From Nitrosovibrio sp. Nv4 (GTDB lineage: Bacteria; Pseudomonadota; Alphaproteobacteria; Acetobacterales; Acetobacteraceae): a stretch of 64,000 nucleotides of DNA. The stretch lies in NCBI GenBank assembly GCA_943330455.2, contig CALQHT020000003.1, forward strand, positions 310 through 64,309, written 5' to 3'. A program made the translations under genes and the position numbers. Below are positions 31,412 to 51,525 of this stretch, piece after piece. Below the pieces are notes generated by a model. It had not been told where the DNA came from, did not search any database, and worked only from the letters and a program-made list of their open reading frames with translations. Each line of letters starts with the position of its first letter. Positions within the stretch are counted from its first letter, which is position 1.

Positions 31412-32713
31412 TTATCGCGCCCCTTGGACCGGCAATGCCACTCGCTGGGGCCGCGCGGCCTCTCCAAATGCGGCGCCAAGAAGCACCATCCCGGGCCAGA
31501 ACAGATAGGCCAGGATCTCCAGGTTCTCCCCGAAACTGTAGAACACCAACATGACGCAAACCGACAAGCCGAGCCGTCCGAGTGCCGAAACCTGCGACAA
31601 GAGAACCATTTCGACCATCGTCCAGGCGATCGGCAAAGCCAGGGCAAGCAGCCCCACGATGCCCTTCACGAACAACAACCCGAACCAGGTATGGTGGCTG
31701 CCGATGGGCATGAACTCCACATGGTGCGGCCCGCGATGGACAATCCCGTGGCCCCAGATCGGCGCTTCGTCCCACCAGCGGTCGATCGCGATCCGGCCCA
31801 GGGCTTCTCGCACCCGGGTCGAATCCGCTCGCGCCGAACGGAACGCCTGGATGGCACTTGCGACGGCATCGATGATGGGACCCGCGACGATCCCGGCGAT
31901 TGCCGCGCCGGCCGCGCCGACCGCCAGCAGGGCCGGCCGCGCCAACCGTGCCGCCGTCCACAAGAGCGGCGGATAGATCGCCAGGAACAACATCGCCATT
32001 CGAGACTTGGTCATCAGGCAAATGGTCACCGCCGCGATGAAACCCAGCCAGCGGAAGCGACGATCGCTTTCGAAGAACGCCAGGATGAAGATCAGGTTGC
32101 CCAACATACCGGCCGCGGGCGCCCAGGGAGTCACGAACTGCCAGCGGCTCGCTCCGTTGGAAGGATCGACGATGTAAAGATAAACCGAGAAGAATTCTGG
32201 CCCCGGCCCGCCGATGATCTGCAATGGCGACACGTACAGCTTCGGCGGCAAGTGCAGCAGTGCCGCGAGCACCAGGAAGGGCACCAGCGCCAATGTTTGC
32301 ACCGCGAACCACCCGACGGCTCGGATGACCAGCTTCGGCCTGATCCGCAAACAGGCGCCGGCCAGTGGGAACAGAGCCAGCAAGGCCCAGCCCTTCAACC
32401 AGCCGATGGACGATTTCAAGGTCTGACCGAAGCCGAGATCCTCGCCGATATGCGCGATCAGCAGCGCCACCAGCATCGCACCCATGCCGAACAGCCATAC
32501 CCAAACGCCAAGCGGCACGGGCGCCGGCTGTGGTGTATTCGGCCGCCAGGCGGAAGCGTAGCAGCGCCAGAAGTAAATCCCGATCAGCGACATCGCCAGC
32601 ACCGGTCCGACGACATAGAGCGCGCCGAGCAGGTAGAATCCCCAGGTTCCGACGAGAGCGCCGAAGATCAGACGCTCTTCAAGATTTTCCGGAGCAACTT
32701 TAACCGAAGCCAT
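31412..32713 (-). CDS. O-antigen ligase/polymerase-like membrane protein (Wzy-like)
   Basis: About 10 TM segments, TKSRMA, PIWGHG and GSHHTWFGLLF Wzy_C-type motifs; within the EPS cluster. Confidence 0.78.
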   Translation of the reverse strand: MASVKVAPENLEERLIFGALVGTWGFYLLGALYVVGPVLAMSLIGIYFWRCYASAWRPNTPQPAPVPLGVWVWLFGMGAMLVALLIAHIGEDLGFGQTLKSSIGWLKGWALLALFPLAGACLRIRPKLVIRAVGWFAVQTLALVPFLVLAALLHLPPKLYVSPLQIIGGPGPEFFSVYLYIVDPSNGASRWQFVTPWAPAAGMLGNLIFILAFFESDRRFRWLGFIAAVTICLMTKSRMAMLFLAIYPPLLWTAARLARPALLAVGAAGAAIAGIVAGPIIDAVASAIQAFRSARADSTRVREALGRIAIDRWWDEAPIWGHGIVHRGPHHVEFMPIGSHHTWFGLLFVKGIVGLLALALPIAWTMVEMVLLSQVSALGRLGLSVCVMLVFYSFGENLEILAYLFWPGMVLLGAAFGEAARPQRVALPVQGAR

Positions 32714-34119
32714 GCGAGCCCCAATGCAATAAAGATAAGTACAGTTGCCGCCATTCCCCCAGCCACCGCCAGTATCGGCAGCGGTCCGCTCGGCCGCGTC
32801 GGCATCGCCGGTGCTTCGAGTGTCTGGACCATGGGATAGGAAGCGAAGAAGTCGGCCTTGCTGGTATCGATCCGCGCCAGGGCGGTGGAAAACACCGCCT
32901 CCGCGACCTGCACGTCGCGCTTCAGGTCGTCCAGCCGGGACGCATGCGGTGCCAGGGACAGCACCCGCGCTTGCTCGACCGTGATCTGCGCGGTCAACTG
33001 GCTGTGCATCGCCGCCATCGCCTGGGTATCGGCGATCTGACCGATCAGGCGCTCAAACAGGCGTGCGCGCTCCTCCCTGACGGCGATGTCCCGCAGTTTC
33101 AGAACATCCGCCCGCTTCAGGCCGGTCAGTTCCAGCGCGCGGGATGCCAGGCGAGCGGTCGTGCTCGCGCCTTCGGCCTGGAGGTCAACGACGCGGGGAT
33201 TGTTCTGGCCGCGGGTGCCGGTCAGGGTCGCCAGTTCGGCATCGATCTTCGCCGATTGCTCGACCAATGCCTGAAACAGAGGATCGGCCCGCAAGGTCAT
33301 CGCGACGGTGGCCAGTTCGACCGTGGTCCCCAACAGACGGGTCAGTTCGGCGACACCCGCGCGCATATGCGCCAGCTTGGCCTCCACGTCGCGCACCTGG
33401 TCACGCAGCCGTTCGACCGAGGCGACGATGGTGCCGTACTGATCCAGCGAGATCAGCCCGGTCGAGGCCTCATGGTCGATCAGTCGTTGGCGGGTTTCGT
33501 TCAGCCGCGTCTTGTAGCCGACCAGCATCGTCCGATAGGCGGTATCGCGCGCGGCGATCTCGTCCGTCCGCAACGCGTCCAGCACTTGCAGAAACGCGGC
33601 GCGCAACGCTTCGGCCCGGGTTGCCGCCCGCTCCGGGGCTCGACCGACAATCTTGATCGAGATCAGCTTCGTCTGGTCGCTGAGTTCCACTTTCGGCACC
33701 GGGAAGCCTTCCAGCGACTCCCCCGCCAATTCCGCGGCGGTCTGGCGCACCCGCTCGCTGATGATCATCTTGCGGTAGTTTTCGGTCGGGCTCAGTTCCG
33801 GACTGGCGAATGCACCGGCGGACGTCGTGCTGGCCTGCCCGAGCCGTTCCAGATTGAGGCTGCTGCCAGCCCCGGTTCCGGGCAGGATCAACGTAAAGGC
33901 CGACGTGTAGCTCGGTGGCGTGAGCTTCAGATAGGCGCCGGCCATGCCCCAAACGGTCGCGATGCCAAGCCCGGCGGCAAGCAGATACCGCCGCCGCCGG
34001 CTTTCCATCTTCCCGCCCCGGGTCAACCGGCGCATCAGTGGCAGAGGCCGCCGGGGGGACGCTTCGGTCCCCTCCGCGACGACCGCCGGATCGTAGGTAA
34101 CGTCAAGGTTCGGGTTCAT
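32668..34119 (-). CDS. Polysaccharide chain-length determinant (GumC/Wzz-like, no kinase domain)
   Basis: Two TMs flanking a long coiled coil, GQNNPRVVDL motif; ends shortly after the second TM. Confidence 0.8.
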   Translation of the reverse strand: MNPNLDVTYDPAVVAEGTEASPRRPLPLMRRLTRGGKMESRRRRYLLAAGLGIATVWGMAGAYLKLTPPSYTSAFTLILPGTGAGSSLNLERLGQASTTSAGAFASPELSPTENYRKMIISERVRQTAAELAGESLEGFPVPKVELSDQTKLISIKIVGRAPERAATRAEALRAAFLQVLDALRTDEIAARDTAYRTMLVGYKTRLNETRQRLIDHEASTGLISLDQYGTIVASVERLRDQVRDVEAKLAHMRAGVAELTRLLGTTVELATVAMTLRADPLFQALVEQSAKIDAELATLTGTRGQNNPRVVDLQAEGASTTARLASRALELTGLKRADVLKLRDIAVREERARLFERLIGQIADTQAMAAMHSQLTAQITVEQARVLSLAPHASRLDDLKRDVQVAEAVFSTALARIDTSKADFFASYPMVQTLEAPAMPTRPSGPLPILAVAGGMAATVLIFIALGLAWLRLKLLRKILKSV

Positions 34120-34126
34120 GGCATCC

Positions 34127-35341
34127 TCACGGGATGAAGACGCGTGCGACGGTCCCGGAGATGGCGATATCTCCGATGGTCCGCATGACATCGCGCAGAT
34201 TGGTGAAGGCAGAGTCGTAACAAGCGACCGCATCGCCCGGCAGCATCACCGGATTGAACCCGTCGCGATCCGAGCGGCGGACCAACCCCTCGATCCGGCG
34301 CTCGATCACCTCGCTCTCCCCGGAAATCGGGTTGACGGAGATCAGCACCGCCCAGCGATCGGCGTTGGTGGATTGGGTGCCACCGACGCAGTTGGCGGAG
34401 ATCAGCGCCTGCAGGAAGCGGGTGCCATAGGGCAGGCTGGTCTGGTCGCGACCGACCGCGGATGACGCATTGCTGCTGGCCGGGGTGGTCAGGTTGGACA
34501 GGAACACCCGCACGCCGGCTGGCGTGATCGGAGAGGGGCGGGCGAGTTTGGCCTGGAAGCAGCCGCGGGATGGGACCTCGACCCGATCGCCATCGACCAG
34601 CAGAACATCGTTCACCGGCTGTCCATCCAGCATCCCGCTGAGATCGACCACTTGCCGTGTGCCCGCATGTACGACCACCACACGACGAATATCGGCATCT
34701 GGCCTGACGCCCGCGGCGTTTGACAGGGCGACACTCAAGGAACGGCCGATCGCGTGATCGCCCGTCGCGGCCTGGCGCACGGTATCGGTTTCGTTCGGCG
34801 CGCGCTGGTTGATGATCACCTGGCCGGGCTGGAACACGGCGCCGGAGACGCTGACCCGCACCGCCGCGCGATCCAGCAGCCGCATGGTGACGCGAGCGAA
34901 GCCGGGCCGATAATGGCCACGCGCGACCAGCCTCTGGGCCAATTCGGCTTCGGCCTGCTGCACCGTGATCCCGGCGACCGACAGCTTGCCGACCACGTCC
35001 AGCGACAGCGTGCCGTCGCTGTCCACCTTGTAGGAGCCGGAGGGCGCGTCATCGCCGGGCAGGCTGATCCGCACCAGATCGCCGGGGGACAGCGACATCT
35101 GCGCGGATACCGGCGCCGCGAAGCCGCTGGCATCGGCTGGGCTGTCGGTGCATCGCATGGCGTTCCAGCGCTCGGGGCTGGGTTTGCCGGCCGCGGGGCG
35201 AGCGGGCATGTCGCGCCGCTCCGCCATGTAACCTTCGTCGGTGTTGACGTCCGACGCATTCGTGGGCCGGTCCCAGGCCGGACTGCAAGCGGCCAGGGCC
35301 GTACTCAGGAGCAGGCCGGCCATCAATCCACGTTTGGTCAT
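34127..35341 (-). CDS. Polysaccharide export lipoprotein (Wza-like, Poly_export plus SLBB)
   Basis: Lipobox LAAC, LSPGDLVRI, YKVDSDGTLSL, VSVSGAVFQPG. Confidence 0.87.
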   Translation of the reverse strand: MTKRGLMAGLLLSTALAACSPAWDRPTNASDVNTDEGYMAERRDMPARPAAGKPSPERWNAMRCTDSPADASGFAAPVSAQMSLSPGDLVRISLPGDDAPSGSYKVDSDGTLSLDVVGKLSVAGITVQQAEAELAQRLVARGHYRPGFARVTMRLLDRAAVRVSVSGAVFQPGQVIINQRAPNETDTVRQAATGDHAIGRSLSVALSNAAGVRPDADIRRVVVVHAGTRQVVDLSGMLDGQPVNDVLLVDGDRVEVPSRGCFQAKLARPSPITPAGVRVFLSNLTTPASSNASSAVGRDQTSLPYGTRFLQALISANCVGGTQSTNADRWAVLISVNPISGESEVIERRIEGLVRRSDRDGFNPVMLPGDAVACYDSAFTNLRDVMRTIGDIAISGTVARVFIP

Positions 35342-35405
35342 TGTGGTCGTCTTCCTTGCGATGATCGTGTCGAGCGGCAATCGGCCACTTCCTGTCGATC
35401 TGTTT

Positions 35406-35420
35406 GCAAGGTCGCGGCCA
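35406..35420 (-). promoter_or_regulatory. Candidate sigma54 (-24/-12) promoter upstream of the wza-gumC-wzy operon
   Basis: Minus strand TGGCCGCGACCTTGC(A): GG-N10-GC with TTGC, 65 bp before the wza ATG. Confidence 0.6.
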
Positions 35421-35458
35421 CGATGCCGCAAAACGCGAATCGTCTTCAGAACAGGATG

Positions 35459-36751
35459 TTACGGTGTCACCTCCGATTGGGCCTCCCAAATTGCGGCATG
35501 GCGGGAGTCGCGAAACGGGAGGGTTTTGCGTTTTGGGATTCGCATTTTCGGACGGTCGAGTCTGGGTGGGGATGCCGATTCCGGCGAAACGGCCACCATG
35601 GCACGCAGCAACGGCGGATCGTCCCAAGGTATATCCAGCGCCATGTCGCTGTGTCCGATGCTCTCGGGGTCGCGCTGCCATTCCTGCGGGAACAGCGCGA
35701 TGGTCTCGGAACCGGCGGCGAGACCGGGGGACGCCGTGTCGCCGCGCATGCCATCCGCCAGGGCGTGGCACAGATCGACCCCAACCCGGGGTCCCAGATG
35801 GCACACCTGGATCGGCCGCGGGTTGCACTCCAACAGATAGGCGGCGCCGGTCCCTGTCTCGATCATGAAGTCGAAGCCGATGAAGCCGGTCGCGCCCAGC
35901 GCCTCGATCATCGCCGCCGACGCCTTCGCCATTGCCGCATCCGCCCCGATCCAGACAACGCTGCTCGGTCCCGTGGTGGAGGTGGTTTGTTGAGCGACAC
36001 CGGCAAATCCAGCGAGCATCCGACCGGACACGGCGACGGCGCAAAACATGGCGGGGGTTCCCTCGATCGCCCGTTGAACGCCGATTTCGGTATCGGTCGG
36101 GTACCAGTCGCGATGCAGCAGCCGTTTCAGACCCTTGCGCAGCATCCGGAAGCCGGCGGGTTTGGTCGCCGTCATGGCGGTCGCCACCGCCGCCCGGTCC
36201 TGGCACAGACTGACCCCTTGTCCTGCCCAACCGAAGGATTCCTTGACGTAGACCGGAAACCCGATGCGCTCGGCGGCTTCGATGGCCGCGTCCGAGGAGG
36301 CGACCGACATGCCCTCGGGAACCAGGACGCCGATTTGCCGAGCGAGTGCCTGGGTCCGGCTTTTCAAGAGCATTGCGTCCAACTGCGTGGGATCGCCAAG
36401 GGAAGCGACGACCGTGTCGCGCTCGCCTTGGGTCAGTCGGCTGTGCCCGCCGGAGCCGGTCCGACGTACCAACGCATGCAGACAGGCTACGGTCCGTTCA
36501 TCCGCGGGCACGATAAGGTCCGGGCGCCATTCCCGCATGGCCTGCACCAGCCGTCGCTCGAAGCTGCGAGACGACCGGACATCCGGCAGCGGGAAGTGGC
36601 GATCCAGGAAGCGGGTCTGGGCCAGCGCGTTATCGCTGGGGCACAGGGCCGCGACCTGGAACCCGGCTTGGGACAACGCCTTTGGCAGTCGAGACGGACC
36701 CCACCGGCCCGATTCAAACGCGATCATCAGAATATTCATTGCAGGCTCCAT
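35459..36751 (-). CDS. ATP-grasp domain ligase
   Basis: GFPVYVKESFGWAGQG, GFIGFDFM, LLECNPR. Confidence 0.85.
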   Translation of the reverse strand: MEPAMNILMIAFESGRWGPSRLPKALSQAGFQVAALCPSDNALAQTRFLDRHFPLPDVRSSRSFERRLVQAMREWRPDLIVPADERTVACLHALVRRTGSGGHSRLTQGERDTVVASLGDPTQLDAMLLKSRTQALARQIGVLVPEGMSVASSDAAIEAAERIGFPVYVKESFGWAGQGVSLCQDRAAVATAMTATKPAGFRMLRKGLKRLLHRDWYPTDTEIGVQRAIEGTPAMFCAVAVSGRMLAGFAGVAQQTTSTTGPSSVVWIGADAAMAKASAAMIEALGATGFIGFDFMIETGTGAAYLLECNPRPIQVCHLGPRVGVDLCHALADGMRGDTASPGLAAGSETIALFPQEWQRDPESIGHSDMALDIPWDDPPLLRAMVAVSPESASPPRLDRPKMRIPKRKTLPFRDSRHAAIWEAQSEVTP

Positions 36752-36772
36752 GGCATTTGGGAGTGGGCGGGT

Positions 36773-37702
36773 TCAGGTCAATCCGACCTGGCGCAGGAAG
36801 GCGACCGAGCGTGGCCAGGACTCCGCAATGGCGGCGGCGTTGCCGGCCGGCGTGCCGCCTTCCTCAACGGGTCCGATGAATGGGGGTGGTTCGGCGATGC
36901 CGTGGCCGGCGTCCGGATAGGTCAGGTGCAGATGCGGATAGGCGAAGCGATGCAGCGCCAATCGGCGCATGACACTCTCACATCCGAAACGGGCGGTGGT
37001 GCCGGCCAGTCCGGTATCCGCATCGCCGGAAACCAGCATGATGGGGCCTCGGATGTTCTCCACCGGGATCCCGCGCGTCTCCTCGAAGCTCCATCGCGTG
37101 GGGTCGGCCCACATCGTCGGAGGCAGCGACGCCACCACAACCGGCTGGCCGCGCCACGTCCATGCGGCCGCGGCGGTTGGATCGGTGAAATTGTTCGGCT
37201 TGCCATGTTCCAGGCCGACATAGCAGCGCGGCGCATAGGCCAGCACGGCGCCGACCGATGGGGTGAGCGACGCGAGCAACAGCGCGAGTTCCCCACCCCG
37301 AGACCACCCACGCAGAGCGACTAGGCCATTGCCGGATCGGGCCCGCACCCATTCCACGGCGTCCTCGACATAGTCCAAGGGCAGGAGACGGAGCCTTTCC
37401 GGGCGACCCGCGACCCCATGCGTGGCGAGGGCCAAGGCAGGAAAACCCTCCGCGGCCAAGGCTTGTGCAGGCGCCTCGGCCAGGCCGCCCATCGCGCCGG
37501 TCAGGCAAACCACAGCCGGACGATCGGTCGGGTGGTTCGGCAGGAACAGCGTCCCAACCATACCGCGTTCCAGGATGGGCACCCGGGTGACCAGGCACGG
37601 TTGCTGAGCGGCGCGGGCTCGCCTGGTCAGAAGACCCATGATCGGGCCGGCGATCGCGGCGCGACGGGTCAAGCTGCAAGCCGAGCTTGGGTGCTGGGTC
37701 AT
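36773..37702 (-). CDS. BAAT/acyl-CoA thioesterase-like alpha/beta hydrolase with possible Tat signal
   Basis: Nucleophile elbow GWSRGG, LVSGDAD, YPDAGHG; N-terminal TRRAAI..ARA. Confidence 0.78.
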   Translation of the reverse strand: MTQHPSSACSLTRRAAIAGPIMGLLTRRARAAQQPCLVTRVPILERGMVGTLFLPNHPTDRPAVVCLTGAMGGLAEAPAQALAAEGFPALALATHGVAGRPERLRLLPLDYVEDAVEWVRARSGNGLVALRGWSRGGELALLLASLTPSVGAVLAYAPRCYVGLEHGKPNNFTDPTAAAAWTWRGQPVVVASLPPTMWADPTRWSFEETRGIPVENIRGPIMLVSGDADTGLAGTTARFGCESVMRRLALHRFAYPHLHLTYPDAGHGIAEPPPFIGPVEEGGTPAGNAAAIAESWPRSVAFLRQVGLT

Positions 37703-37706
37703 GGGA

Positions 37707-40229: not shown

Positions 40230-40235
40230 TGTGCC

Positions 40236-41330: not shown

Positions 41331-41354
41331 TGGGGTGCCGGGGCGACCGAAGGA

Positions 41355-42443: not shown

Positions 42444-42459
42444 GGCTGGGTCTCCGATG

Positions 42460-43431
42460 TCAGCGGGAAATCGTGGCGCGGACGACGCCGGCGGGCAGGG
42501 TGGCGCAGGCCAGGGCACCGGCCGCGGTCATCAGGGAGCGGCGCAGGCCGCCGGCGATCAGGGCGATCGGGCTGTAACGCAGCGCCAGCAACATGTGGTT
42601 CAGCGCCTCGCTCGAACCCTGGCCGGTGCGCAGTGCCCGTCGCGCCAGGTAACGATGGAACAGCGCCCGTGCCCCGGGTTCGGCGGCGCCAATCTTGGCC
42701 CGAGCGTAACCACGGGCGCGTTCGATCATCGCCTCCCAGCCCGCCTGCATCGCGCCGAGATCGGCCGACAAGCCAGCGGCGGACATCCGATAGTCCACCA
42801 GCGCAGCGTCGATACCGCGGATTTCCCAGGCCGTGATCGCGAGCACCCGCACCAGCCATTCCTGGTCCTCGGCGTGCTTCATCGTCAGGTCGAAACCGCC
42901 AACGCTATCGAGCACCGACCGTCGCGCGACGATGTTGGAGGTGGTGCAGACCGGGTTTTCACCCAGCACATGCGACAGGGTCAGCCGATCGACATGGGCG
43001 GACATGCGACCGGGCTGCGCCATCGCGGCGTCATAGAAGCGGGTGCGCGCAAATGACACGCCAAGGCATGGTTCCATGGCGAAACGGGTGCGGTGGCGTG
43101 CCAGCAGGTCGTCGGCCCAACGGTCGTCGCTGTCGAGAAACGCGACCAATGTCCCGATCCCATCCGCGGCGCCGTGATTGCGGGCGGCGGCGGGACCCTT
43201 GTTCTCCTGCACCAGGATGCGAACCCGGGGATCTCCAGCCGCGGCGGCCAGCGCCACGGCGGCGGAATCGTCGGGAGAACCGTCATCGACGATCAGCAGT
43301 TCAAAGGACGGTTCGGTTTGGGTCAGGACGCTCCGAACCGCGACACCAATGGTCTCCCGGGCGCGGAAGCAGGGCATGACGACGGTAAAAAGCGGAGTGG
43401 GATCCGGATGGAGGGCCGGGACAGGGAGCAT
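42460..43431 (-). CDS. Glycosyltransferase family 2
   Basis: VVMPCF, VDDGSPD, ARNHG, FLDSDD, AEDQEW. Confidence 0.92.
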   Translation of the reverse strand: MLPVPALHPDPTPLFTVVMPCFRARETIGVAVRSVLTQTEPSFELLIVDDGSPDDSAAVALAAAAGDPRVRILVQENKGPAAARNHGAADGIGTLVAFLDSDDRWADDLLARHRTRFAMEPCLGVSFARTRFYDAAMAQPGRMSAHVDRLTLSHVLGENPVCTTSNIVARRSVLDSVGGFDLTMKHAEDQEWLVRVLAITAWEIRGIDAALVDYRMSAAGLSADLGAMQAGWEAMIERARGYARAKIGAAEPGARALFHRYLARRALRTGQGSSEALNHMLLALRYSPIALIAGGLRRSLMTAAGALACATLPAGVVRATISR

Positions 43432-43469
43432 GGCGAGACCTCACATAACGTTGTGTCCCCGCCATCCTT

Positions 43470-43484
43470 TCAAATGCCGCGCCA
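43470..43484 (-). promoter_or_regulatory. Weaker sigma54-like promoter upstream of the GT2 operon
   Basis: Minus strand TGGCGCGGCATTTGA: correct spacing, GA instead of GC at -12, about 40 bp before the ATG at 43431. Confidence 0.4.
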
Positions 43485-43741
43485 CGGCCCCGGATGCTCA
43501 ATATCCTGTGTTTTTTCAGATGGTTGATGGTGCCGGTCGGTTCGGCGGCAGGAAAATGCCAACCCAAAACCGTCCGAATTTGGGAAACCGCCGCATTGCG
43601 GGAGACCAACTCTCCCATTTTGCGAGATCAATGCGGGACGGTTCACACCCGCTCGCAGATAAAATAGGCGAATTCAATTAGTTAACCAGAAGGCACAGAA
43701 CCTGCGGAGGTCCCGGCATCACCGATTGCCCGGAGGCCACC

Positions 43742-45166
43742 ATGTTTATCCAATCGCCACCCAACGTTCGTGCTCTCGCCTCGAACGCGTCCTGGATCCC
43801 GACAAAGCCGCCAACCGAGGAGCTATTCGGCCTCGCGGTGTCCAACTCCTCGGTTGCCGACATGCTCGACTGGCTATGTGCGCGTCTGGATCGGGGCGAG
43901 CCGACCCGCGTGGCGTTTCTGAACGCGCATTGTGTGAACCTGGCCGCGGCGGACGCAAAGTATCAAGCCGCCCTCAGCAGCGCCGATGTAGTGTTGCCGG
44001 ATGGTTCGGGGATCGCGCTGGCTGTCCGGTTGAAGGGATTGCGGCTTCTGGCCAATCTGAACGGGACAGACCTGATCCCACGGTTGGGCGCGCGCCTCGC
44101 CGCTTCGGGCCGGTCGGTCTTTCTGGTCGGCGGCCGCCCCGGTGTCGCCGCCAACGCGGCGGCGGTGCTGGCCAAAACCTGCCCGGGCCTTCGCATCGCC
44201 GGTACTCACCACGGCTATTTCGCGCCGGAGGAGGAAGATGCCGTCATCGAGGCCATCAACATGTCCGGCGCCGACGTGGTTCTGGCCGCGTTCGGCGTGC
44301 CGCGCCAGGACGTCTGGCTGGAGAAAGTTGCCCCGCGCCTGACCGCGACCTTGAGCTTCGGCGTCGGCGGCCTGTTCGATTTCCTGTCCGGTCGCATTCC
44401 GCGTGCCCCACGCGCGCTGCGGGCGGCTGGATTGGAATGGACCTATCGTCTCTATCAAGAGCCGGCCCGGATGTGGCGCCGCTATATCCTGGGCAACCCG
44501 GAGTTCGTGGGGCGAGCAGTGGCGGGTGCGTTCCCTTGGGTGGGACGGGCGTGCGAGAAGGTTGACCTTACGCTGAAGCGCGGCCTTGACGTTGTGGGTT
44601 CGGCGGTCGGGCTGGTGCTTCTGGCCCCGCTGTTCCTGGGCGTGTCGATCGCGATCCGTGTGACCTCGCCGGGTCCGGCACTGCTGCGCCAGACGCGGAT
44701 CGGCCAGGACGGTGTGCCGTTCACCTTGTTCAAGTTCCGTTCGATGTATCGGGACGCGGAGGCCAGGCGGGCGGAACTGGAGAAGCAGAACGAGCATGGC
44801 GCGGACGGGGTGACGTTCAAGCTGCGCCGCGACCCGAGGATCACGCCGATCGGTCGCCTGCTGCGGCGCAGCTCGATCGACGAGTTGCCGCAATTGCTGA
44901 ACGTGCTGCTGGGCCAGATGTCGCTGGTCGGTCCGCGCCCGCCACTGCCGGATGAGGTCGCGCGCTATCGTCCGGAGGAGCGGCGTCGTTTGGCCGGCAA
45001 GCCGGGCCTGACCTGCGTGTGGCAAGTCAGCGGCCGCGCCGACCTGCCGTTCGCCCGCCAGGTGGAACTCGACGTCGATTACCTGGCGCGGCGCAACATC
45101 TTCCGCGATCTGGCAATCCTGCTGCGCACCGTGCCGGCGGTGCTCACCGCGCGCGGCGCCTATTGA
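43742..45166 (+). CDS. Fusion: WecB/TagA/CpsF glycosyltransferase plus bacterial sugar (priming) transferase
   Basis: NAHCVN, LPDGSG, NLNGTDL, GVPRQD, GGLFDF; then LKRGLDV, FKFRSM, SSIDELPQLLNV, SLVGPRP, KPGLT. Confidence 0.92.
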   Translation: MFIQSPPNVRALASNASWIPTKPPTEELFGLAVSNSSVADMLDWLCARLDRGEPTRVAFLNAHCVNLAAADAKYQAALSSADVVLPDGSGIALAVRLKGLRLLANLNGTDLIPRLGARLAASGRSVFLVGGRPGVAANAAAVLAKTCPGLRIAGTHHGYFAPEEEDAVIEAINMSGADVVLAAFGVPRQDVWLEKVAPRLTATLSFGVGGLFDFLSGRIPRAPRALRAAGLEWTYRLYQEPARMWRRYILGNPEFVGRAVAGAFPWVGRACEKVDLTLKRGLDVVGSAVGLVLLAPLFLGVSIAIRVTSPGPALLRQTRIGQDGVPFTLFKFRSMYRDAEARRAELEKQNEHGADGVTFKLRRDPRITPIGRLLRRSSIDELPQLLNVLLGQMSLVGPRPPLPDEVARYRPEERRRLAGKPGLTCVWQVSGRADLPFARQVELDVDYLARRNIFRDLAILLRTVPAVLTARGAY

Positions 45167-45310
45167 ACCCACGCGATTGCCGAATGGCTGATGACAGCTT
45201 GCACGGTAGTCGGTCTATTAGCGCCTCGCCCTGGCGCCGATGCGCAAACCCGCGTTCGGCGCCCAGGATCGGAGCCCGTTTGGATGCAGCCAGTCGCGCG
45301 GAGCGATGCC

Positions 45311-46024
45311 ATGGACGATCCCGGACCGCGACGTGTCTTGCTGGCTGTCGACGGCGCCACGGTCGCGGTCCTGACCCGCGTTCTGTTTGAGCGTTTGGGA
45401 TATGAGGTATCGCGGATCCGGTGCGACGCGACCGCCATCGATGCCGTATCGGGGACCCGGTTCAATCTCGCGGCCATCGAGGCCGCTGCGGATGGGGCGG
45501 AAGCGGTGGCCGCGGCCTGTGCCAGCGGTTTCGCTTCTGGACCCGTTCCCGTGTTGTCGCTCGCGGCGCCGGGATCGGTCATCCATTGTGCCGCGGCGAG
45601 TGTCACGCTGCCCCTGACCGTGGCCGCCTTGCGAGCGGCCGTGGGAGAATGTCAGCGCCAAAGCGATACCGAGGCGGGAACCGGCATCGACATGAAAGCG
45701 ATCGAGGAACTCTGGGGAGGGACCGACAGTCCCGCGTTTCTGGCGGTCGCCAGGATGTTCCTCACCGAGCTGGACCGGCGGCTCGATCAACTGGCCACGG
45801 CGCTGGCCGCGGTCCGTCGCGGCGATGTCGAACTTCACGCCCATGCGATCAAGGGCGCTGCCGGCAGCGTCGGGGCGACGGCAATCAGCTCCGCCGCCGC
45901 CAGGCTGGAGTCCCATGTCAATGGTGACGACACCGAACTGCGCGCCCGGTTCGACGCGCTGACGGCAGCGGCGCAGCGCGGAGCTTCGGCGCTGCGGGCG
46001 ATCGTCGACCGGCCAGCGACCTGA
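45311..46024 (+). CDS. Pseudo-receiver plus Hpt phosphotransfer protein (LuxU-like role)
   Basis: C-terminal Hpt LHAHAIKGAAGSVGA; N-terminal receiver-like fold lacking the acceptor Asp; start uncertain (45191 or 45311). Confidence 0.8.
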   Translation: MDDPGPRRVLLAVDGATVAVLTRVLFERLGYEVSRIRCDATAIDAVSGTRFNLAAIEAAADGAEAVAAACASGFASGPVPVLSLAAPGSVIHCAAASVTLPLTVAALRAAVGECQRQSDTEAGTGIDMKAIEELWGGTDSPAFLAVARMFLTELDRRLDQLATALAAVRRGDVELHAHAIKGAAGSVGATAISSAAARLESHVNGDDTELRARFDALTAAAQRGASALRAIVDRPAT

Positions 46025-46032
46025 GCACGGTC

Positions 46033-47457
46033 ATGGCAGAACAACGCAACATCCTGATCGTCGAGGACAGCCCGACCCTGGCAATGGCCTGGCGGATGCA
46101 ATTGGAGCCCGGCGGCTACAACATCATCGTGGCCGAGGACGGCAAGGCGGCCTACGCGATCCTGCGTGCCCAACCGATCGACTGCATGCTGCTGGACCTG
46201 AAGCTGCCCGACATGGATGGCATCGACATCCTGGAGGAAGTGAAGACCTGGCCAACACCGCCGGCGGTCGTGGTGGTGACCGCCAACGCCTCCCTTGCCA
46301 CCGCCGTCCGGGCCGTGCGCGGGGGTGCGTTCGACTATCTGGTAAAGCCTTTTGCCGCCAACCGCCTGACCACGACGGTCGAGAACGCGCTGAGCACCAT
46401 CGACCTGCGGCGGGAAGTGGCGATCCTGCGGCGTACGGTCGAGCGCGCCGAATTTGCCAACATGATCGGCCGTTCCATGCCGATGCAGGCGGTCTATCGT
46501 ACCATCGAGGCGGCGGCTCAGAGCACCGCGAGCGTGTTCGTCACCGGTGAGTCGGGCACCGGCAAGGAACTCGCGGCCGAGGCATTGCACCAACTCAGTC
46601 CCCGCAAGTCGCGCCCGTTCGTCGCGCTGAACTGCGGCGCCATTCCCAACGATCTGCTGGAGAGTGTGATCTTCGGTCACGTCAAAGGGGCATTCACCGG
46701 GGCTACGGCGGACCAGGAAGGGGCCGCCGCCCGCGCCGACGGCGGCACGTTGTTCCTGGACGAAATCGGGCAAATGCACCCGCTGTTGCAGACCAAGCTG
46801 CTGCGTTTCATCCAGACCAGCAGTTATGAGCGGGTTGGCGATCCGCGCACCCGGCGCGCGGATATCCGCTTCATCGCCGCGACCAACCGCAATCCGGCCG
46901 AGGCGGTGCGGGCGGGAAACCTGCGGGAGGATCTGTTCTACCGGTTGAATGTGGTGCCCATCCGCATGCCTCCCCTGCGCGACCGGGGCGAGGACATCGT
47001 CTTGATCGCGCGCCGCTTCCTGACCCAATTCTCTACCGCGGAACAACGCCACTTCAAGAACTTCGCCCCCGAAGTCGAAGCTCGGCTGCAAGCCTATTCG
47101 TGGCCCGGCAATGTGCGCCAATTGCAGAATGTCGTGCGCAACATCGTCGTGCTGCACGACGCCAAGACCGTCACCTTGGATATGCTGCCCGCGTTGGAGG
47201 AGCCGACCGCGCTACCGGTTGAAATGTCCAGGGAGCCTTCCGCCGTTTCGCCTGGATCGGCCGCACCCGTCGAACTGGTCGGCGTCGTGGGGCTGCCCAC
47301 CCGACCGGAGGATATCGAAAAACTGGCGATTTCCGAACGCCGTTACATCGAAAATGCCATCGCGGTTTGCGGCGGCAATCTGCAACTCGCGGCGCGACGC
47401 CTGGGTGTCAGCCCGTCCACCATCTACCGCAAGAAGGAGGCCTGGCAGGCTGGATAA
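46033..47457 (+). CDS. Sigma54-dependent response regulator, LuxO/SypG-like (REC-AAA+-HTH)
   Basis: LLDLKLPD receiver, TGESGTGKE, GAFTGA, FLDEIG, C-terminal LGVSPSTIYRKKEAW resembling LuxO. Confidence 0.93.
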   Translation: MAEQRNILIVEDSPTLAMAWRMQLEPGGYNIIVAEDGKAAYAILRAQPIDCMLLDLKLPDMDGIDILEEVKTWPTPPAVVVVTANASLATAVRAVRGGAFDYLVKPFAANRLTTTVENALSTIDLRREVAILRRTVERAEFANMIGRSMPMQAVYRTIEAAAQSTASVFVTGESGTGKELAAEALHQLSPRKSRPFVALNCGAIPNDLLESVIFGHVKGAFTGATADQEGAAARADGGTLFLDEIGQMHPLLQTKLLRFIQTSSYERVGDPRTRRADIRFIAATNRNPAEAVRAGNLREDLFYRLNVVPIRMPPLRDRGEDIVLIARRFLTQFSTAEQRHFKNFAPEVEARLQAYSWPGNVRQLQNVVRNIVVLHDAKTVTLDMLPALEEPTALPVEMSREPSAVSPGSAAPVELVGVVGLPTRPEDIEKLAISERRYIENAIAVCGGNLQLAARRLGVSPSTIYRKKEAWQAG

Positions 47458-47528
47458 TGCCAGTTTGTGACAGGGGCGACGCTCTTGCGGCTGCGAACCA
47501 AACTTGTGCGATCGAGTACGCGCCTCAC

Positions 47529-47640
47529 CGTCATTGCGGGGCTTGACCCGGCAACCCACGCTTCAGCAGCAGGGGGCGGGTTGCCGGATCAAGGCCCGCA
47601 ATGGCGATGAGGTGACGCTTATGGGTCATTGTTTCGGCCG
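47529..47640 (+). repeat. 112-bp palindromic dispersed repeat, copy B
   Basis: CGTCATTGCGGGGCTTGACCCGGCAACCC..GGGTTGCCGGATCAAGGCCCGCAATGGCG; intergenic between convergent genes. Confidence 0.88.
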
Positions 47641-47658
47641 GCTGAGCGCTGCGTTGCT

Positions 47659-50600
47659 TCACCCCGACAACGCGTCGCGGATGTTGCCGCCGATGCGCTC
47701 GCAGATCTCCGATACATGCGCCAACGCGCGTTCGGCGGTCTCCCGATCGGCAGCGCCGGCCAGATCGGTGGTCGGCTCAGTCAGGACATCCAGCCCGACC
47801 GTCTCGGCCGCACTGCGCAACGCGGCGGATTCTCGCGCGACACCACCCCAGGCCTCCGCGTCAACAGCCGCACGAATCGCGGCGATGCGTTCGGTCGCTT
47901 CGGTGGCGAAGGTCTCCAACAATTCCCGCGCGGTGGCTGGGTCGAAATCGCGCGCGAGCCGCTTGAATGCTTTCGCCGCCTCGGTTGCTTCCGCATCCCC
48001 GTCCTGGGTGGAACGTGACGACCGGAGTTTGCCGGCGATCGCCCGATTGATGATCCGGGCCAGTTCCTCATTCAGGATCGGTTTGCCCAGGAATGCGTCC
48101 ATCCCGGCCGCGATGCAATCCAGTTCGTGTTGGCGGAAGACATTGGCGGTGACAGCGACGATCGGTATTTCCGCCTGCGGGCCGCCCATCGCTCGGATCG
48201 ACCGGGTCGCTTCCAGCCCATCCATTTCCGGCATCATGACATCCATCAGCACCAGATCGTAAGGCACGGTACGAACGGCGTCGATTGCCTCCTGACCGCT
48301 GCCAACGGTGTCCGCCCGGTGCCCCATTCTTTCGAGCCGGGATGTGACGACGAGCTGGTTGGTGGCGTTGTCCTCGGCGACGAGGATCCGCAGACGCCGC
48401 GTGGCAGGGGGAGCCGGTGCCGCAACTGGCATCGCCTCGATTGGATGGATCGCACGCGGTTGTCGGCGCCGATCGGTTTCCAACAGGACATCGAAGTGGA
48501 AAGCGGAACCTTGGCCTTCGCGACTTTCGACGCGGATGGTGCCGCCCATCAGTGCGATCAGGCGCGCGGAGATCGCCAGTCCGAGCCCGGTGCCGCCGAA
48601 CCGCCGGGAGATGGAGCTGTCCGCCTGGGAAAACTGGCGAAACAGCGTGTCCTGCAATTCGGGCGGGATACCAATGCCGGTATCCCGCACCACGAAACCC
48701 AGGCGGGTCTGGCGATCGTCGATGCCCAGCACGGTGACTTCGATCGTAACGCTGCCGATATCGGTGAATTTCAGCCCGTTGCCGACCAGATTGATCAACA
48801 CCTGCCGCAAACGTCCAGGGTCCCCCAGCAGGCGCTGGGGCACGTCGGGAGCGATAATACCCCGAAGCTCCAGCCCCTTCTCGGCGGATTTCACACGCAT
48901 CAGTTCGACGACGCTGTCGACGACCTGGACGACGTCGAACGAAATCGTCTCGAACTCAAGATGGCCGGCTTCGAGCTTCGAGAAATCGAGGATGTCGTTG
49001 ATGATTCGCAGCAGATCCAGCGCGGCGTCGCGGAGCGTTTCCGCGAAGCGGCGCTGCACCGCTGGTAACTCCCCATCCAGCATCAGTCCCGCCATCCCGA
49101 GGATCCCGTTCATCGGCGTCCGGATTTCGTGACTCATCGTGCTCAGAAACTCGGTCTTCGCTCGGCTGGCGGCCTCGGCGGCATCGCGGGCCGCGCTGAT
49201 TTCCTGTTCATCGCGCTTTCGGGCTGAGATATCCCGAAGATAGGCGGTGAAGACAGCGCGGTGTTCCAACTGCGTGGCCGTTATCGCGACCTCTGCGGGA
49301 AACTCCGTGCCATCCGCGCGCAGGGCCCGCAACTCGATCCGGTTGTTCAACACCGGACCGTGGCCGGTGCGCAGATAAGTCCGCATGCCCTCGATATGCG
49401 CGTCCCGCAGATCATACGGGATCAGCACATCCTGAATCTTGCGGCCGATGACGTCGGCGACGGCGTGGCCGAAGATCTGTTCCGCGGCCCTGTTGAACTC
49501 CAGGATCACGCTGTCGGCATCGATGGTGATGACCGCGTCGAGTGACGACTGCAGGATGGCGCTCTTGAGGGATTCGGACTCGCGCAGTTGGACTTCGGTC
49601 TCCTTCTCCGCTGTAACGTCGATGAGCTGCCATAGCCGGCCGAATTTCCGGCCTTCGACCATGATCGGAATGAAATCGCGTAGGATGATATGGCCGTCGC
49701 GCAGTATAACCTGCTCCCGCAACACGGGTTGTTCAGCCGCGATGATTTGCCGAATTCGGGCCATCGTCGTCTCTGGGTCGGCATGGGCCGCCAGGATATG
49801 CGACATGATTTCCACAGAGTTGGTGCCACGCAGGTCCTCCGGCGCCTGATTCAACCCGAACAGCACGCAGAATTCAGTGTTGACGAATTCCACGCGGTCA
49901 TCTGCCGTGACCACCAGAACGCCCGAACGCATGGAAGCCAGAATGGTGTAGAAACGGTCGAGCGTTGCCTGCAAGGCAGCCTCGGCGGCCTTGCGTCCGG
50001 TGATGTCGGTGAAGGTCCGGACCGAACTGCCGTTTGGCAGTGCCTGGGTGCGTACCTCCAGGGCGACGCCGTTCGGACGCACCCGTTCATAGGTTTGTGG
50101 GCCGAGACCACCGCGCGCTGCCAGCGCGCCGACATGGGCATTGGGTCCGTCGTCAGGACCGAACTCCTGCTGCGAAAGCTGCCATTGGAGGATGTCCTGG
50201 AACCGGACCCCAGGACGCGCCAACGCGGGCGGTAGTGCCAACAACGCGGCCGCCCGTTCGTTCATGACCGGAACGTCGCCGGTTTCGTCGACCATGAGGA
50301 TGCCCTGGCTCATGTTTTCGAGCGTGGCGGTCAACATGGCCTGGGAGCGCAGCAGCTTGCGCTGCTGGCGCACCAACATGACGCCTACAAGAAGAATCAC
50401 CGCGGAAAGAACCACGCCACCGAACATGTGTTGGCGGCGATCGCGGTTGAAATTGGCAAACGCTTCCGTTCGGGAAAGGCCGACGATGACGGCCAAGTCG
50501 TATTTCTCAAGTCTCCAATAGCTGTTGATCCGCTGGATCCCGTCATCGACGCCATACGCGGTGAAATGTCCGAACCCTGGCCCCGCGCGTAACTGCCGCA

Positions 50601-51291
50601 TCGTCGCCTCGTCCAGGGCGGTTCCGATTGTGTTGATGACATTGGGCGCGCGGGAGCGGACGAAGCCGTCTTTCAGCCCAACAAGGATGATGGTGCCGTC
50701 GCCGATATCGAGCGATTTATAGAAGCGCGACAGGTAGTTGGCGTCGAGCGACATGACCAGGACGCCGGCCTGACGGGAATCCGGGCCGAAAACCTTGCGA
50801 GTGAACTGGATCGTCCATTTTTTCGACACCCGACCGAGCACCGGCTTGCTGATGAACAGGTCGTCCTGCGCGGTATCCAACTGCACGCGGATATGCTCCC
50901 GATCGGAGAGGTCCACGCGCCCCGCACTCGGTAGGTTGCCCGCCACCATGATGCCGGCCAGGTCGGTCATGGCCGATTGCACGGTGGGACTGTCGGGATC
51001 CTGCTGCGGCGGAAAGAGGCGTGCCAGGTCGAAGTCGGTTGGATGGCGAGCATAGGCCGCACGCAGGAGCTTGAGGGTTTGGTCGGTTCCCTCGATCATC
51101 CGGTTGATGTTCTCGCCGAAGCCCCGCGCCAGATTGCCGCTGTCCTGATAGGCGGCCTGCTCGACTTGATCCCGCTCCCGCGCCAGGTTCAGCAGTATGG
51201 CGACCCAGACCATGGATATCGCCCCTACGATCAGAATCGCCGGTTTGGTCCATCCCCCGGGTTTCTGGATCGGGTGCGCTTCTGCTGCCAT
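47659..51291 (-). CDS. Hybrid sensor histidine kinase (TM-Cache-TM, multiple PAS, HisKA, HATPase, REC, degenerate Hpt)
   Basis: MSHEIRTPMNG H-box, NLVGNGLKFT, DTGIGI, GGTGLGL, LVLMDVMMPEMDG; Hpt-like tail reads ESAALRSAA. Confidence 0.95.
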   Translation of the reverse strand: MAAEAHPIQKPGGWTKPAILIVGAISMVWVAILLNLARERDQVEQAAYQDSGNLARGFGENINRMIEGTDQTLKLLRAAYARHPTDFDLARLFPPQQDPDSPTVQSAMTDLAGIMVAGNLPSAGRVDLSDREHIRVQLDTAQDDLFISKPVLGRVSKKWTIQFTRKVFGPDSRQAGVLVMSLDANYLSRFYKSLDIGDGTIILVGLKDGFVRSRAPNVINTIGTALDEATMRQLRAGPGFGHFTAYGVDDGIQRINSYWRLEKYDLAVIVGLSRTEAFANFNRDRRQHMFGGVVLSAVILLVGVMLVRQQRKLLRSQAMLTATLENMSQGILMVDETGDVPVMNERAAALLALPPALARPGVRFQDILQWQLSQQEFGPDDGPNAHVGALAARGGLGPQTYERVRPNGVALEVRTQALPNGSSVRTFTDITGRKAAEAALQATLDRFYTILASMRSGVLVVTADDRVEFVNTEFCVLFGLNQAPEDLRGTNSVEIMSHILAAHADPETTMARIRQIIAAEQPVLREQVILRDGHIILRDFIPIMVEGRKFGRLWQLIDVTAEKETEVQLRESESLKSAILQSSLDAVITIDADSVILEFNRAAEQIFGHAVADVIGRKIQDVLIPYDLRDAHIEGMRTYLRTGHGPVLNNRIELRALRADGTEFPAEVAITATQLEHRAVFTAYLRDISARKRDEQEISAARDAAEAASRAKTEFLSTMSHEIRTPMNGILGMAGLMLDGELPAVQRRFAETLRDAALDLLRIINDILDFSKLEAGHLEFETISFDVVQVVDSVVELMRVKSAEKGLELRGIIAPDVPQRLLGDPGRLRQVLINLVGNGLKFTDIGSVTIEVTVLGIDDRQTRLGFVVRDTGIGIPPELQDTLFRQFSQADSSISRRFGGTGLGLAISARLIALMGGTIRVESREGQGSAFHFDVLLETDRRRQPRAIHPIEAMPVAAPAPPATRRLRILVAEDNATNQLVVTSRLERMGHRADTVGSGQEAIDAVRTVPYDLVLMDVMMPEMDGLEATRSIRAMGGPQAEIPIVAVTANVFRQHELDCIAAGMDAFLGKPILNEELARIINRAIAGKLRSSRSTQDGDAEATEAAKAFKRLARDFDPATARELLETFATEATERIAAIRAAVDAEAWGGVARESAALRSAAETVGLDVLTEPTTDLAGAADRETAERALAHVSEICERIGGNIRDALSG

Positions 51292-51525
51292 GCCGTCGTT
51301 CCTTCACATCCGGCTGGACAGCTCCCTGCCGACAAAAGCCGATTGTATCGCTCGGGGGAAGCTGCCCCGGTGTTCGCAGTCTAGCCCATCCGATTCACGG
51401 GGCAACCGCGGCAGCAAAGTATAACGTCGCCGCAACATAAATGGTTGTAGCCTGGTGGAGCGGGGATTATTTGGAAAAGATGCTGACACGGACCGCTGCG
51501 GCGTTCGAGCGATCCCCCAGATGCG

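Follow-up and report, generated by a model that had tools for sequence, protein, structure and literature searches.

In Vibrio quorum sensing, the hybrid kinases LuxQ, LuxN and CqsS signal through a separate Hpt protein, LuxU, to the sigma-54-dependent activator LuxO. A second member of the LuxO family, SypG, is encoded in the syp polysaccharide locus of Vibrio fischeri, where hybrid kinases also signal via an Hpt step and several sigma-54 promoters with an upstream enhancer precede the operons of the locus. LuxO and SypG are ~48% identical, and the SypG enhancer overlaps the published 13-bp LuxO enhancer, TTGCAWWWTGCAA, at qrr1 (PMC10162802). Among Alphaproteobacteria, the ShkA-ShpA-TacA pathway of Caulobacter joins a hybrid kinase, a stand-alone Hpt protein and a sigma-54 activator, and ShkA contains a pseudo-receiver domain (PMC12632262). 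A further sigma-54 response regulator, PrsR of the PrsK/PrsR pair, is dedicated to the exopolysaccharide loci associated with PEP-CTERM/exosortase systems. Here we describe a locus of 14 genes (positions 31412-51291) in a 64,000-nucleotide stretch of contig CALQHT020000003.1, hereafter the window, from the lake-water metagenome-assembled genome of an alphaproteobacterium. We read it, with a probability of roughly 70%, as a Wzx/Wzy-type surface-polysaccharide locus with its own predicted sigma-54 switch, which would run through a hybrid kinase, a stand-alone relay protein and a LuxO/SypG-family activator.

The closest working analogue of the locus is syp, its closest protein relatives are LuxO and SypG, and its closest alphaproteobacterial logic is that of ShkA-ShpA-TacA. 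As in syp, a LuxO-family REC-AAA+-HTH (helix-turn-helix) activator gene lies inside or abuts a polysaccharide locus with Poly_export, flippase, Wzy-like, Bac_transf and GT2/GT4 glycosyltransferase (GT) genes; several sigma-54 promoters, here recognized as sequence elements, stand before the operons together with an upstream enhancer, here a candidate one; and hybrid kinases signal, here by prediction, via an Hpt step. One related locus (L163) has an H-NOX protein and a kinase beside the activator, recalling the nitric-oxide input through HnoX/HahK. The locus differs from syp in that the activator is no orthologue of SypG, the set of polysaccharide genes differs and includes a WecG-priming transferase fusion, the candidate binding sites are nearer to the LuxO palindrome than to the published SypG enhancer, the relay is split between a kinase with a His-less Hpt domain and a separate pseudo-receiver-Hpt protein, and the host is a freshwater alphaproteobacterium. 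Pfam scans of the 14 genes found no STAS or SypE-like domain of the SypA (STAS)/SypE partner switch.

With the Vibrio quorum-sensing pathway the locus shares a hybrid kinase, a separate Hpt protein, a LuxO-family activator and sigma-54, and the candidate activator boxes have the same 5-3-5 palindrome architecture as the LuxO site. The HTH recognition helix SPSTIYRK is common to the activator and to what we take to be the LuxO sequence. In contrast to LuxU, a 110-residue single-domain protein encoded downstream, the Hpt protein is encoded upstream of the activator and has 237-277 residues with a pseudo-receiver. No Qrr RNA was found here, and the candidate targets are polysaccharide operons. 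In Caulobacter, the pseudo-receiver lies in the kinase ShkA, whereas here it lies in the Hpt protein; TacA targets stalk and cell-cycle genes rather than an adjacent polysaccharide locus, and it falls outside the subfamily, the Caulobacter control genome having had no LuxO-model match at E 1e-135. The chain-length and export proteins are weakly similar to the EpsF/EpsE models of PEP-CTERM loci; unlike those loci, the locus has no exosortase gene that we could see, and PrsK/PrsR has no Hpt step. Our literature searches, whose coverage was incomplete, returned no description of such a locus in Alphaproteobacteria. The system can be called uncharacterized, as an earlier first-pass annotation of the same DNA had proposed; it is not unique to this genome, given that its family includes Rhodovarius crocodyli.

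Family placement of the activator

The activator has all elements of the LuxO-type architecture: a REC domain with a phospho-acceptor Asp (D55), an AAA+ domain with GESGTGKE at 172 and GAFTGA at 219, and a Fis-type HTH, with a C-terminus that reads ...SPSTIYRKKEAW. Its best NCBIfam model is the LuxO equivalog NF041946 at 535.3 bits, below the equivalog cut-off of 800 bits, and its closest solved structure is LuxO (5EP0; 405 bits, E 4.6e-120), against 298 bits for NtrC1. The first-pass annotation had named a LuxO-like activator with a GAFTGA motif, and the domains, the best model and the best structure all agree with it.

For reference, 400 genomes of the phylum were searched with the NCBIfam LuxO model. 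Genuine LuxO proteins were recovered from seven genomes of one genus at 852-867 bits, and each of these genomes carried a second gene at ~600 bits (545 in one). In all four genomes that were fetched, this second gene lies between Poly_export and GT4 genes, once with a hybrid kinase just upstream, and because this is the syp arrangement the second genes were treated as SypG-like. The activator is 47-48.6% identical to LuxO, 44-45% identical to the SypG-like proteins of the syp loci, and 38-40% identical to NtrC, ZraR and AtoC of Escherichia coli. LuxO and SypG share ~48% identity (PMC10162802), so the activator and SypG stand at about equal distance from LuxO.

In a maximum-likelihood tree, the activator groups with LuxO, the SypG-like proteins and further LuxO-like proteins in a clade with 100/100 support. 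Outside this clade lie NtrC, ZraR and AtoC of E. coli and also the four other full-length activators of REC type that the genome encodes, one of which (C5:44272) groups with E. coli NtrC. Within the clade, the activator belongs to a separate alphaproteobacterial subclade and does not sit among the genuine LuxO proteins, and the Vibrio SypG-like activators form a 100% clade of their own, apart from it. The phylogeny proposed in the first-pass annotation, which set the regulator against LuxO, SypG and NtrC, thus places it with LuxO and SypG and not with the NtrC types. By these sequence comparisons, the activator is a member of the LuxO/SypG family and an orthologue of neither protein.

Narrower assignments were also considered and rejected. 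The NtrC model TIGR01818 scored 396.9 bits against a cut-off of 558.6, and the protein lies outside the NtrC grouping. The PrsR model TIGR02915 covered residues 7-385 only and scored 370.9 bits, below its cut-off of 502.6 and below the score of the LuxO model. Assignment as a LuxO equivalog was set aside on the distance of the score from the 800-bit cut-off and on the position outside the genuine LuxO clade, and assignment as a SypG orthologue on the separate SypG-like clade and the level of identity to its members.

Linkage of the activator to polysaccharide genes

Activator orthologues with 70-76% identity occur in 8 of the 77 genomes of the genus that were searched, and in six of these eight the WecG-priming fusion and polysaccharide genes are kept with the activator. 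The syntenic cluster is whole in two congeners (G073 and G069), partly present on a short contig in a third (G048), and split at contig ends in two more (G070 and G071). A 90%-identical relative from a metagenome keeps the priming transferase, Hpt, activator and kinase genes together, and the kinase is convergent with and adjoins the activator in six genomes as well as in this relative. The activator of G069 (L100, 14595-15967) matches in two frames that part near residue 397, suggesting either a frameshift or an error of assembly.

Beyond the genus, the gene order changes. In a sister genus, GT4, GT2, GT2 and Wzx genes are divergent from the WecG-priming fusion, downstream of which come a canonical PAS-HisKA-HATPase-REC-Hpt kinase and, after it, the activator. 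Six long contigs with homologues of the Wzy-like protein were sampled as outside contexts, and in five of them a sigma-54 activator stands beside the same core, defined as the WecG-priming fusion, Wzx, two GT2, GT4, export, chain-length and Wzy genes. These related loci come from Rhodovarius crocodyli, from a further genus of Alphaproteobacteria and from several metagenome contigs, and they show three other gene orders. Rhodovarius crocodyli and L164 have a short Hpt gene and an activator, convergent at the Wzy end; L160 has a PAS kinase with REC-Hpt, and L161 a GAF kinase with REC-Hpt; L163 has the activator followed by an H-NOX protein and a kinase; and in L162 no activator was found near the core. 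The outside activators are 50-71% identical to that of the window, and the linked activators form one subclade with it (Shimodaira-Hasegawa-like approximate likelihood ratio test, SH-aLRT, 98), from which the frameshifted L163 copy is absent. Proteins of the locus are 64-66% identical to those of the cluster in Rhodovarius crocodyli (Alphaproteobacteria, Acetobacterales). The persistence of activator and core together through rearrangements and exchanges of sensor is a classic signature of functional coupling. Linkage to the exopolysaccharide genes, another point raised by the first-pass annotation, is accordingly conserved in the genus and in other alphaproteobacterial lineages despite the rearrangement.

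LuxO-like genes do not all show this linkage: the LuxO-like activator of Halocynthiibacter is an orphan with no polysaccharide or Hpt genes nearby. Contexts from Thermoanaerobaculia also lack polysaccharide and Hpt genes, and their proteins fall outside the LuxO/SypG clade. An even sample of 400 genomes of the class yielded no orthologue of the WecG-priming fusion; carriers were missed by this sample and were later found through the contexts of the Wzy-like homologues. A word-index search with the relay protein returned two clusters only and is too insensitive for mapping distribution. A scan of named genomes with the activator found no close orthologues, its back-translated peptide patterns being too specific, and the best named matches were Rhodobacterales proteins at 44-52% identity. 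The locus family is real but patchy, and the locus is, as judged from these gene contexts, a member of a wider uncharacterized alphaproteobacterial family rather than unique to its genome.

Two related gene arrangements were seen along the way. Seven other genomes of the genus (G001, G041, G024, G068, G018, G017 and G023) have an activator of a second LuxO-like subfamily, with 52-54% identity to that of the window. In G001 (L107, G001:C2:68000-87900) it lies inside a different polysaccharide cluster, reminiscent of syp, with a multi-SLBB Poly_export protein, a GT2, a GlmS-like enzyme, a hexapeptide acetyltransferase and a GT1/4 enzyme. In L163 (14390-16663; GCA_947499045.1), the activator gene is split into pieces of 369 and 97 residues; after it come genes for a UDP-glucose dehydrogenase-like protein, an H-NOX (HNOB) protein and a HisKA-HATPase-REC kinase.

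Candidate sigma-54 promoters and activator boxes

The genome that carries the locus has rpoN, and a sigma-54-type or sigma-54-like promoter element precedes each of the three transcription units of the polysaccharide genes (Table 1). The rightward element, before the priming-transferase gene, has the form GGCAY-N5-NYGC and lies 36-37 nucleotides before the start codon in all six congeners compared, with diverging sequence between element and start codon. The leftward element has the form TGGCNC-N5-(C/T/A)TTGAA and lies ~40 nucleotides before the first GT2 gene, again in six of six congeners, and one of two sister-genus genomes has TGGGGC...TTGAA at this position. The near-consensus element before the export gene has counterparts in the three congeners for which the region was available (TGGCGCGGCCCTTGCT, TGGCACCCGTCTTGCT and TGGTACTGGTCTTGCG). 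A scan of the window for TGGC-N7-TTGC gave 7 matches against 3.6 expected, and this enrichment was not significant; the promoter argument rests on positional conservation of the predicted elements across species and not on the count of matches.

The second feature of the control regions is a 13-bp palindrome, TYSCA-W3-TGSRA, scored with at most one mismatch, which resembles the LuxO box. All five matches in the window fall within the two control regions of the locus, and a weaker fourth export-side box lies at 35426-35438. Across the 6.48-Mb genome there are 111 matches, and only three places have at least two of them inside 120 bp. The export-side boxes are the top-ranked of these clusters and recur in the same arrangement in orthologous loci; the boxes between the divergent promoters rank second. 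These two are the only promoter-associated clusters of the genome. The third cluster, on contig C199, lies inside an open reading frame of low G+C with no sigma-54 promoter and was dismissed as chance. Of the related loci checked, only L161 gave no match; the others all carry boxes in their control regions, among them exact TTGCAAAATGCAA and TTGCAATATGCAA boxes in L163. Since the box pattern was itself drawn from these loci, circularity is less of a concern for the genome-wide scan and for the more distant loci. The three position-conserved -24/-12 elements and the locus-specific boxes support sigma-54 control of the polysaccharide operons as a prediction from DNA sequence.

A relay divided between kinase and stand-alone Hpt protein

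The hybrid histidine kinase convergent with the activator, which the first-pass annotation had also recognized, has an intact H721 and an intact canonical receiver (D1017, T, K). The Hpt-like domain at its C-terminus scores 25.9 bits with Pfam Hpt and has an Ala at the His position (A1156, codon 47824-47826). The Hpt-site His is absent from all seven kinase copies, which read RESAALRS, EAEALRG, EARALHA and similar, versus the canonical AHSLKG.

The relay protein shows the converse pattern. It probably starts at 45311 and has 237 residues, and database versions have 237 and 246. Its Hpt domain retains the His within an HAIKG motif (codon 45842-45844), and H-x-x-K-G is invariant in all nine stand-alone orthologues, which are only 35-41% identical overall, save for a 73%-identical metagenome relative. 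Pfam did not call a domain in the N-terminal half. This half is nevertheless homologous to receivers, because the protein aligns with the REC-Hpt end of the sister-genus kinase (E 5e-19) and a profile of the nine orthologues matches solved structures of receiver domains at 6-109 (E 2.5e-7) and of Hpt proteins at 134-213 (E 2.6e-9). The receiver is degenerate, with a Glu at the Asp position (codon 45479-45481) and the Lys lost; among the nine orthologues, eight have Glu or Gly in place of the Asp, and none keeps the Lys. The sole orthologue that keeps the Asp is from G073, the genome without an orthologous kinase, a single case that is only suggestive. The Hpt gene reported in the first-pass annotation is therefore present, but not as a LuxU-like single domain: it encodes a degenerate receiver with an Hpt domain, and the LuxU model matches at E 0.004 only.

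Hpt domains without the His make up ~0.9% of their class and receivers without the Asp ~2% (PMC12632262). In the kinase here, the receiver Asp survives and the Hpt His is gone, whereas in the stand-alone copy the His survives and both Asp and Lys are gone; a REC-Hpt module may have been duplicated or split off. Between them, the proteins retain all four residues that a relay would need: H721 and D1017 in the kinase, the His of HAIKG in the relay protein and D55 in the activator. In related loci, the Hpt step is either fused in a canonical kinase or carried by a bare Hpt protein of 115-181 residues. In the metagenome relative (L092, 1105-1845), the relay protein is 71-74% identical to that of the window, the priming transferase and activator 90% and the kinase 84%; the relay protein therefore evolves much faster than its partners.

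Proposed mechanism and alternative explanations

In our proposal, a periplasmic or cytoplasmic cue would be detected by the dCache and PAS domains of the hybrid kinase, which would then phosphorylate itself on H721 and transfer the phosphate to D1017 in its own receiver. With the His missing from its Hpt-like domain, the phosphate would have to go to the His of the separate pseudo-receiver-Hpt protein, and from there it would reach D55 of the activator. The phosphorylated activator would bind the 13-bp palindromes, a relaxed form of the LuxO box, and open the three predicted sigma-54 promoters of the glycosyltransferase/flippase, the export/chain-length/polymerase and the priming-transferase/Hpt/activator operons. 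Opening the promoter of its own operon would amount to positive feedback. The product would be a surface polysaccharide made by the Wzx/Wzy route with lineage-specific decoration. The domain make-up, the lost and kept catalytic residues, the family placement, the conserved linkage and the conserved promoter elements and boxes can be read from the DNA and its comparison with relatives, whereas the signal, the sequence of phosphate transfers, the direction in which the genes are regulated and a role of the polymer in adhesion, biofilm or capsule are inferred. The dedicated switch from signal to polysaccharide put forward by the first-pass annotation finds support in the family placement, the conserved linkage and the sigma-54 elements, and the polysaccharide locus is very probably self-regulating in the local sense.

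Several observations weigh against this proposal or limit it. One congener (G004) lacks the polysaccharide cluster, and another (G014) retains a Wzy fragment only, yet both keep the Hpt, activator and kinase genes; the regulator can therefore have other targets. The fragment in G014 (G014:C64:18443-18808) is a Wzy-like remnant of 122 residues with an in-frame TGA. Conversely, G073 has the cluster and the relay protein with no orthologous kinase, and Rhodovarius has no kinase next to the locus, so the pairing of kinase and Hpt protein is not universal. The -12 element of the leftward promoter is TTGA rather than the near-invariant TTGC, with the GA invariant among congeners. The enrichment of the boxes is partly circular, as noted above. 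If the Hpt and activator genes depended solely on their own sigma-54 promoter, a basal promoter would also be needed, and none was identified for them. In one metatranscriptome with 5% of the sampled words, the locus was covered only by scattered short pieces, mostly 90-95% identical, and these gave no usable 5' ends.

These points bear on three other explanations. The coupling might be as proposed with the adjacent kinase not obligatory, in which case the Hpt protein would collect phosphate from other hybrid kinases and the neighbor would be interchangeable or act mainly as a phosphatase. G073, with cluster, Hpt and activator and no kinase orthologue, would fit this, as would the Rhodovarius and L164 loci with only a short Hpt gene and activator, and the sensors vary by lineage (dCache-PAS, PAS-PAS, GAF, and H-NOX with a kinase). 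There is a precedent in V. fischeri, where several kinases are reported to feed the Hpt domain of SypF (PMC12369376). We nevertheless consider this unlikely, given the convergent, adjoining kinase in six genomes and the metagenome relative, and given the His-less Hpt of the kinase and the Asp-less receiver of the relay protein, complementary losses that would make the two proteins mutually dependent. Alternatively, the relay protein could be a modulator, whether phosphate sink, scaffold or inhibitor, with H721 of the kinase phosphorylating the activator directly and the kinase's own receiver as a competing sink. Pseudo-receivers often act by protein binding and not phosphotransfer (PMC12632262), and the rapid evolution of the relay protein relative to its neighbors would suit such a role. 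An H-x-x-K-G motif invariant across nine divergent orthologues is, however, hard to explain without phosphotransfer, and in related loci a canonical fused HisKA-REC-Hpt kinase lies directly upstream of the activator, which points to an ancestral route through Hpt. We regard a modulator role as improbable.

The remaining explanation is that adjacency is incidental: the activator would mainly control distant targets, for example small RNAs as in Vibrio, and the polysaccharide genes would use other promoters. Orphan LuxO-like activators elsewhere in the class, such as that of Halocynthiibacter, and the two congeners with the relay and no cluster are compatible with this. It seems very improbable, however, because no Qrr or other credible Rfam RNA was found in 30000-53000, promoter-associated box clusters are confined to the locus genome-wide, promoters and boxes stand directly before polysaccharide operons in related loci (boxes not being matched in L161), and the activator subclade tracks the polysaccharide core through its rearrangements. 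A locally acting switch through kinase, relay protein and activator is thus the reading that we favor.

A more speculative extension concerns the origin of the relay, and we offer it tentatively, as a possibility that we would not bet on. The kinase and relay protein could be halves of a duplicated REC-Hpt module that decayed in complementary fashion, with the dead domains docking privately and insulating the relay. The three forms of the Hpt step (fused, with pseudo-receiver, and bare) could then mark a route to LuxU-type Hpt proteins, and polysaccharide control could be older than quorum sensing. On the last point, activators embedded in polysaccharide loci are found repeatedly across the LuxO/SypG clade, and local polysaccharide control may therefore be the older job of the family.

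Polysaccharide genes and surroundings

The gene map rests on Pfam and NCBIfam profile scans of the translations; the region has a G+C content of ~65%, which makes lists of open reading frames noisy. Membership in the Wzx/Wzy pathway is indicated by the joint presence of a priming transferase (PF02397), a flippase (PF13440/PF01943) and an export protein (PF02563), and every gene named in the first-pass annotation was found at its place in the profile scans. Its count of three glycosyltransferases holds for the stand-alone enzymes and omits a fourth GT domain, which is fused to the priming enzyme. Its description of the Hpt and activator genes as following the exopolysaccharide locus without interruption is right as to adjacency, although the priming-transferase/Hpt/activator unit runs divergently to the other genes of the cluster. 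Features are listed in Table 1.

Table 1. Genes and candidate control elements of the locus, with positions in the window
Feature	Position	Strand	Basis or remark
Wzy_C-family (polymerase or O-antigen-ligase-like) multi-pass membrane protein, 433 residues	31412-32713	-	via homologues
Chain-length (PCP-like) protein without kinase domain, 521 residues	32668-34233	-	weak TIGR03017 EpsF, E 1.1e-12
Outer-membrane polysaccharide export lipoprotein (Poly_export + SLBB)	34127-35431	-	PF02563 at 1.4e-13, PF22461; lipobox LAAC in translation
Candidate sigma-54-type promoter, export/chain-length/Wzy unit: TGGCCGCGACCTTGCA	35405-35420	-	near-consensus
Three LuxO-box-like palindromes: TCCCAAATTGCGG, TTGCGTTTTGGGA, TCGCATTTTCGGA	35484-35552	.	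65-135 bp upstream of export promoter, in ATP-grasp 3' end
ATP-grasp ligase, accessory	35459-36751	-	PF02786 + PF02222
Alpha/beta hydrolase, BAAT_C/dienelactone-hydrolase type, accessory	36773-37702	-	PF08840 at 8.8e-14, PF01738
Wzx (MOP) flippase with C-terminal GNAT Acetyltransf_6 fusion, 840 residues	37707-40229	-	PF13440 8.7e-53, residues 52-348; PF13480 1e-28, residues 621-767
GT4 glycosyltransferase	40236-41330	-	PF13692 + PF00534
GT2 glycosyltransferase	41355-42518	-	PF00535 at 6.5e-33
GT2 glycosyltransferase, first gene of leftward operon	42460-43431	-	PF00535 at 9e-28
Candidate sigma-54-like promoter, leftward glycosyltransferase/flippase operon: TGGCGCGGCATTTGAA	43470-43485	-	atypical -12
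Two LuxO-box-like palindromes: TCCGAATTTGGGA, TCCCATTTTGCGA	43573-43625	.	between divergent promoters; candidate shared enhancer
Candidate sigma-54-type promoter, priming-transferase/Hpt/activator operon: AGGCACAGAACCTGCG	43691-43706	+	six-congener comparison
WecG/TagA-type glycosyltransferase fused to polyprenyl-phosphate sugar-phosphate (priming) transferase	43742-45166	+	PF03808 8e-60, PF02397 4e-60; TIGR03025 265 bits
Stand-alone relay protein: degenerate receiver + intact Hpt	45191-46024	+	PF01627 at 1.8e-13; orthologue alignments
LuxO/SypG-family sigma-54 activator, REC-AAA+-HTH_8	46033-47457	+	Pfam, NCBIfam, PDB, trees
Membrane hybrid histidine kinase, 1210 residues: transmembrane segment (TM), dCache, TM, PAS_7, PAS, HisKA, HATPase, REC, Hpt-like	47659-51291	-	Pfam

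The WecG-priming fusion is the hallmark gene of all related loci. The Wzy-like protein, always encoded last in the trio of export, chain-length and Wzy genes in those loci, has ~10 hydrophobic segments. It had no direct Pfam or NCBIfam match even at loose thresholds, and a PDB profile search returned nothing; PF04932 Wzy_C is annotated on many of its homologues (50-99% identity; 2,538 relatives in the database), some of which bear the NCBI name of O-antigen ligase domain protein. The chain-length protein scores 47.5 bits against the TIGR03017 cut-off of 422, also matches TIGR03007 and reaches E 0.26 with Pfam Wzz; its position is kept in all related loci. The export lipoprotein probably starts at ~35341 (MTKRGL...LSTALAAC), and the promoter assigned to its unit falls inside the long version of its open reading frame.

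The decoration genes (GNAT, hydrolase and ATP-grasp) are variable accessories, and some orthologous clusters lack them. In G073, G071 and the other lineages, the flippase has no GNAT half; the hydrolase occurs, among the congener clusters, only in G069 (one of three full-length orthologous clusters); and the ATP-grasp ligase has no match in the G071 cluster.

Unrelated metabolic genes flank the locus: to the left a fused hydantoinase/oxoprolinase A-B gene (27409-31305), and to the right (51441-55173) genes for an Old-Yellow-Enzyme-type reductase, a thioredoxin-reductase-like protein and an enolase-superfamily protein. No mobile-element genes were found around the locus and its composition is uniform, giving no sign of recent transfer despite the patchy distribution. 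A G+C-rich inverted repeat at 47529-47640 fills the convergent gap between activator and kinase. Five tandem 13-bp units (GGCCCARTGGGAA) lie at 51526-51590, between the kinase start (51291) and the Old-Yellow-Enzyme-type gene; the long open reading frame called from 51441 for the latter spans the array, and the real start is probably near 51640. The spacing of this array differs from that of the 13-bp activator box.

Implications

The locus is not a new principle of regulation. It extends the LuxO/SypG-type sigma-54 switch, which has been studied almost only in Vibrionaceae, to an uncharacterized family of alphaproteobacterial polysaccharide loci that includes the cultivable Rhodovarius crocodyli and abundant lake bacteria, and it offers concrete candidate cis elements namely a 13-bp box and three promoters. 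Two points are the most noteworthy: the split relay, and how widely LuxO-family activators are linked to polysaccharide genes. The former is a natural example of a phosphorelay divided by complementary domain decay, in which both losses occur in one relay and are conserved across species, an unusual combination that bears on the evolution of relay specificity and of stand-alone Hpt proteins. If the tentative scenario of a duplicated REC-Hpt module is true, these loci would give a visible route for the origin of LuxU-type stand-alone Hpt proteins, and Vibrio quorum sensing would be a later specialization of the activator family.

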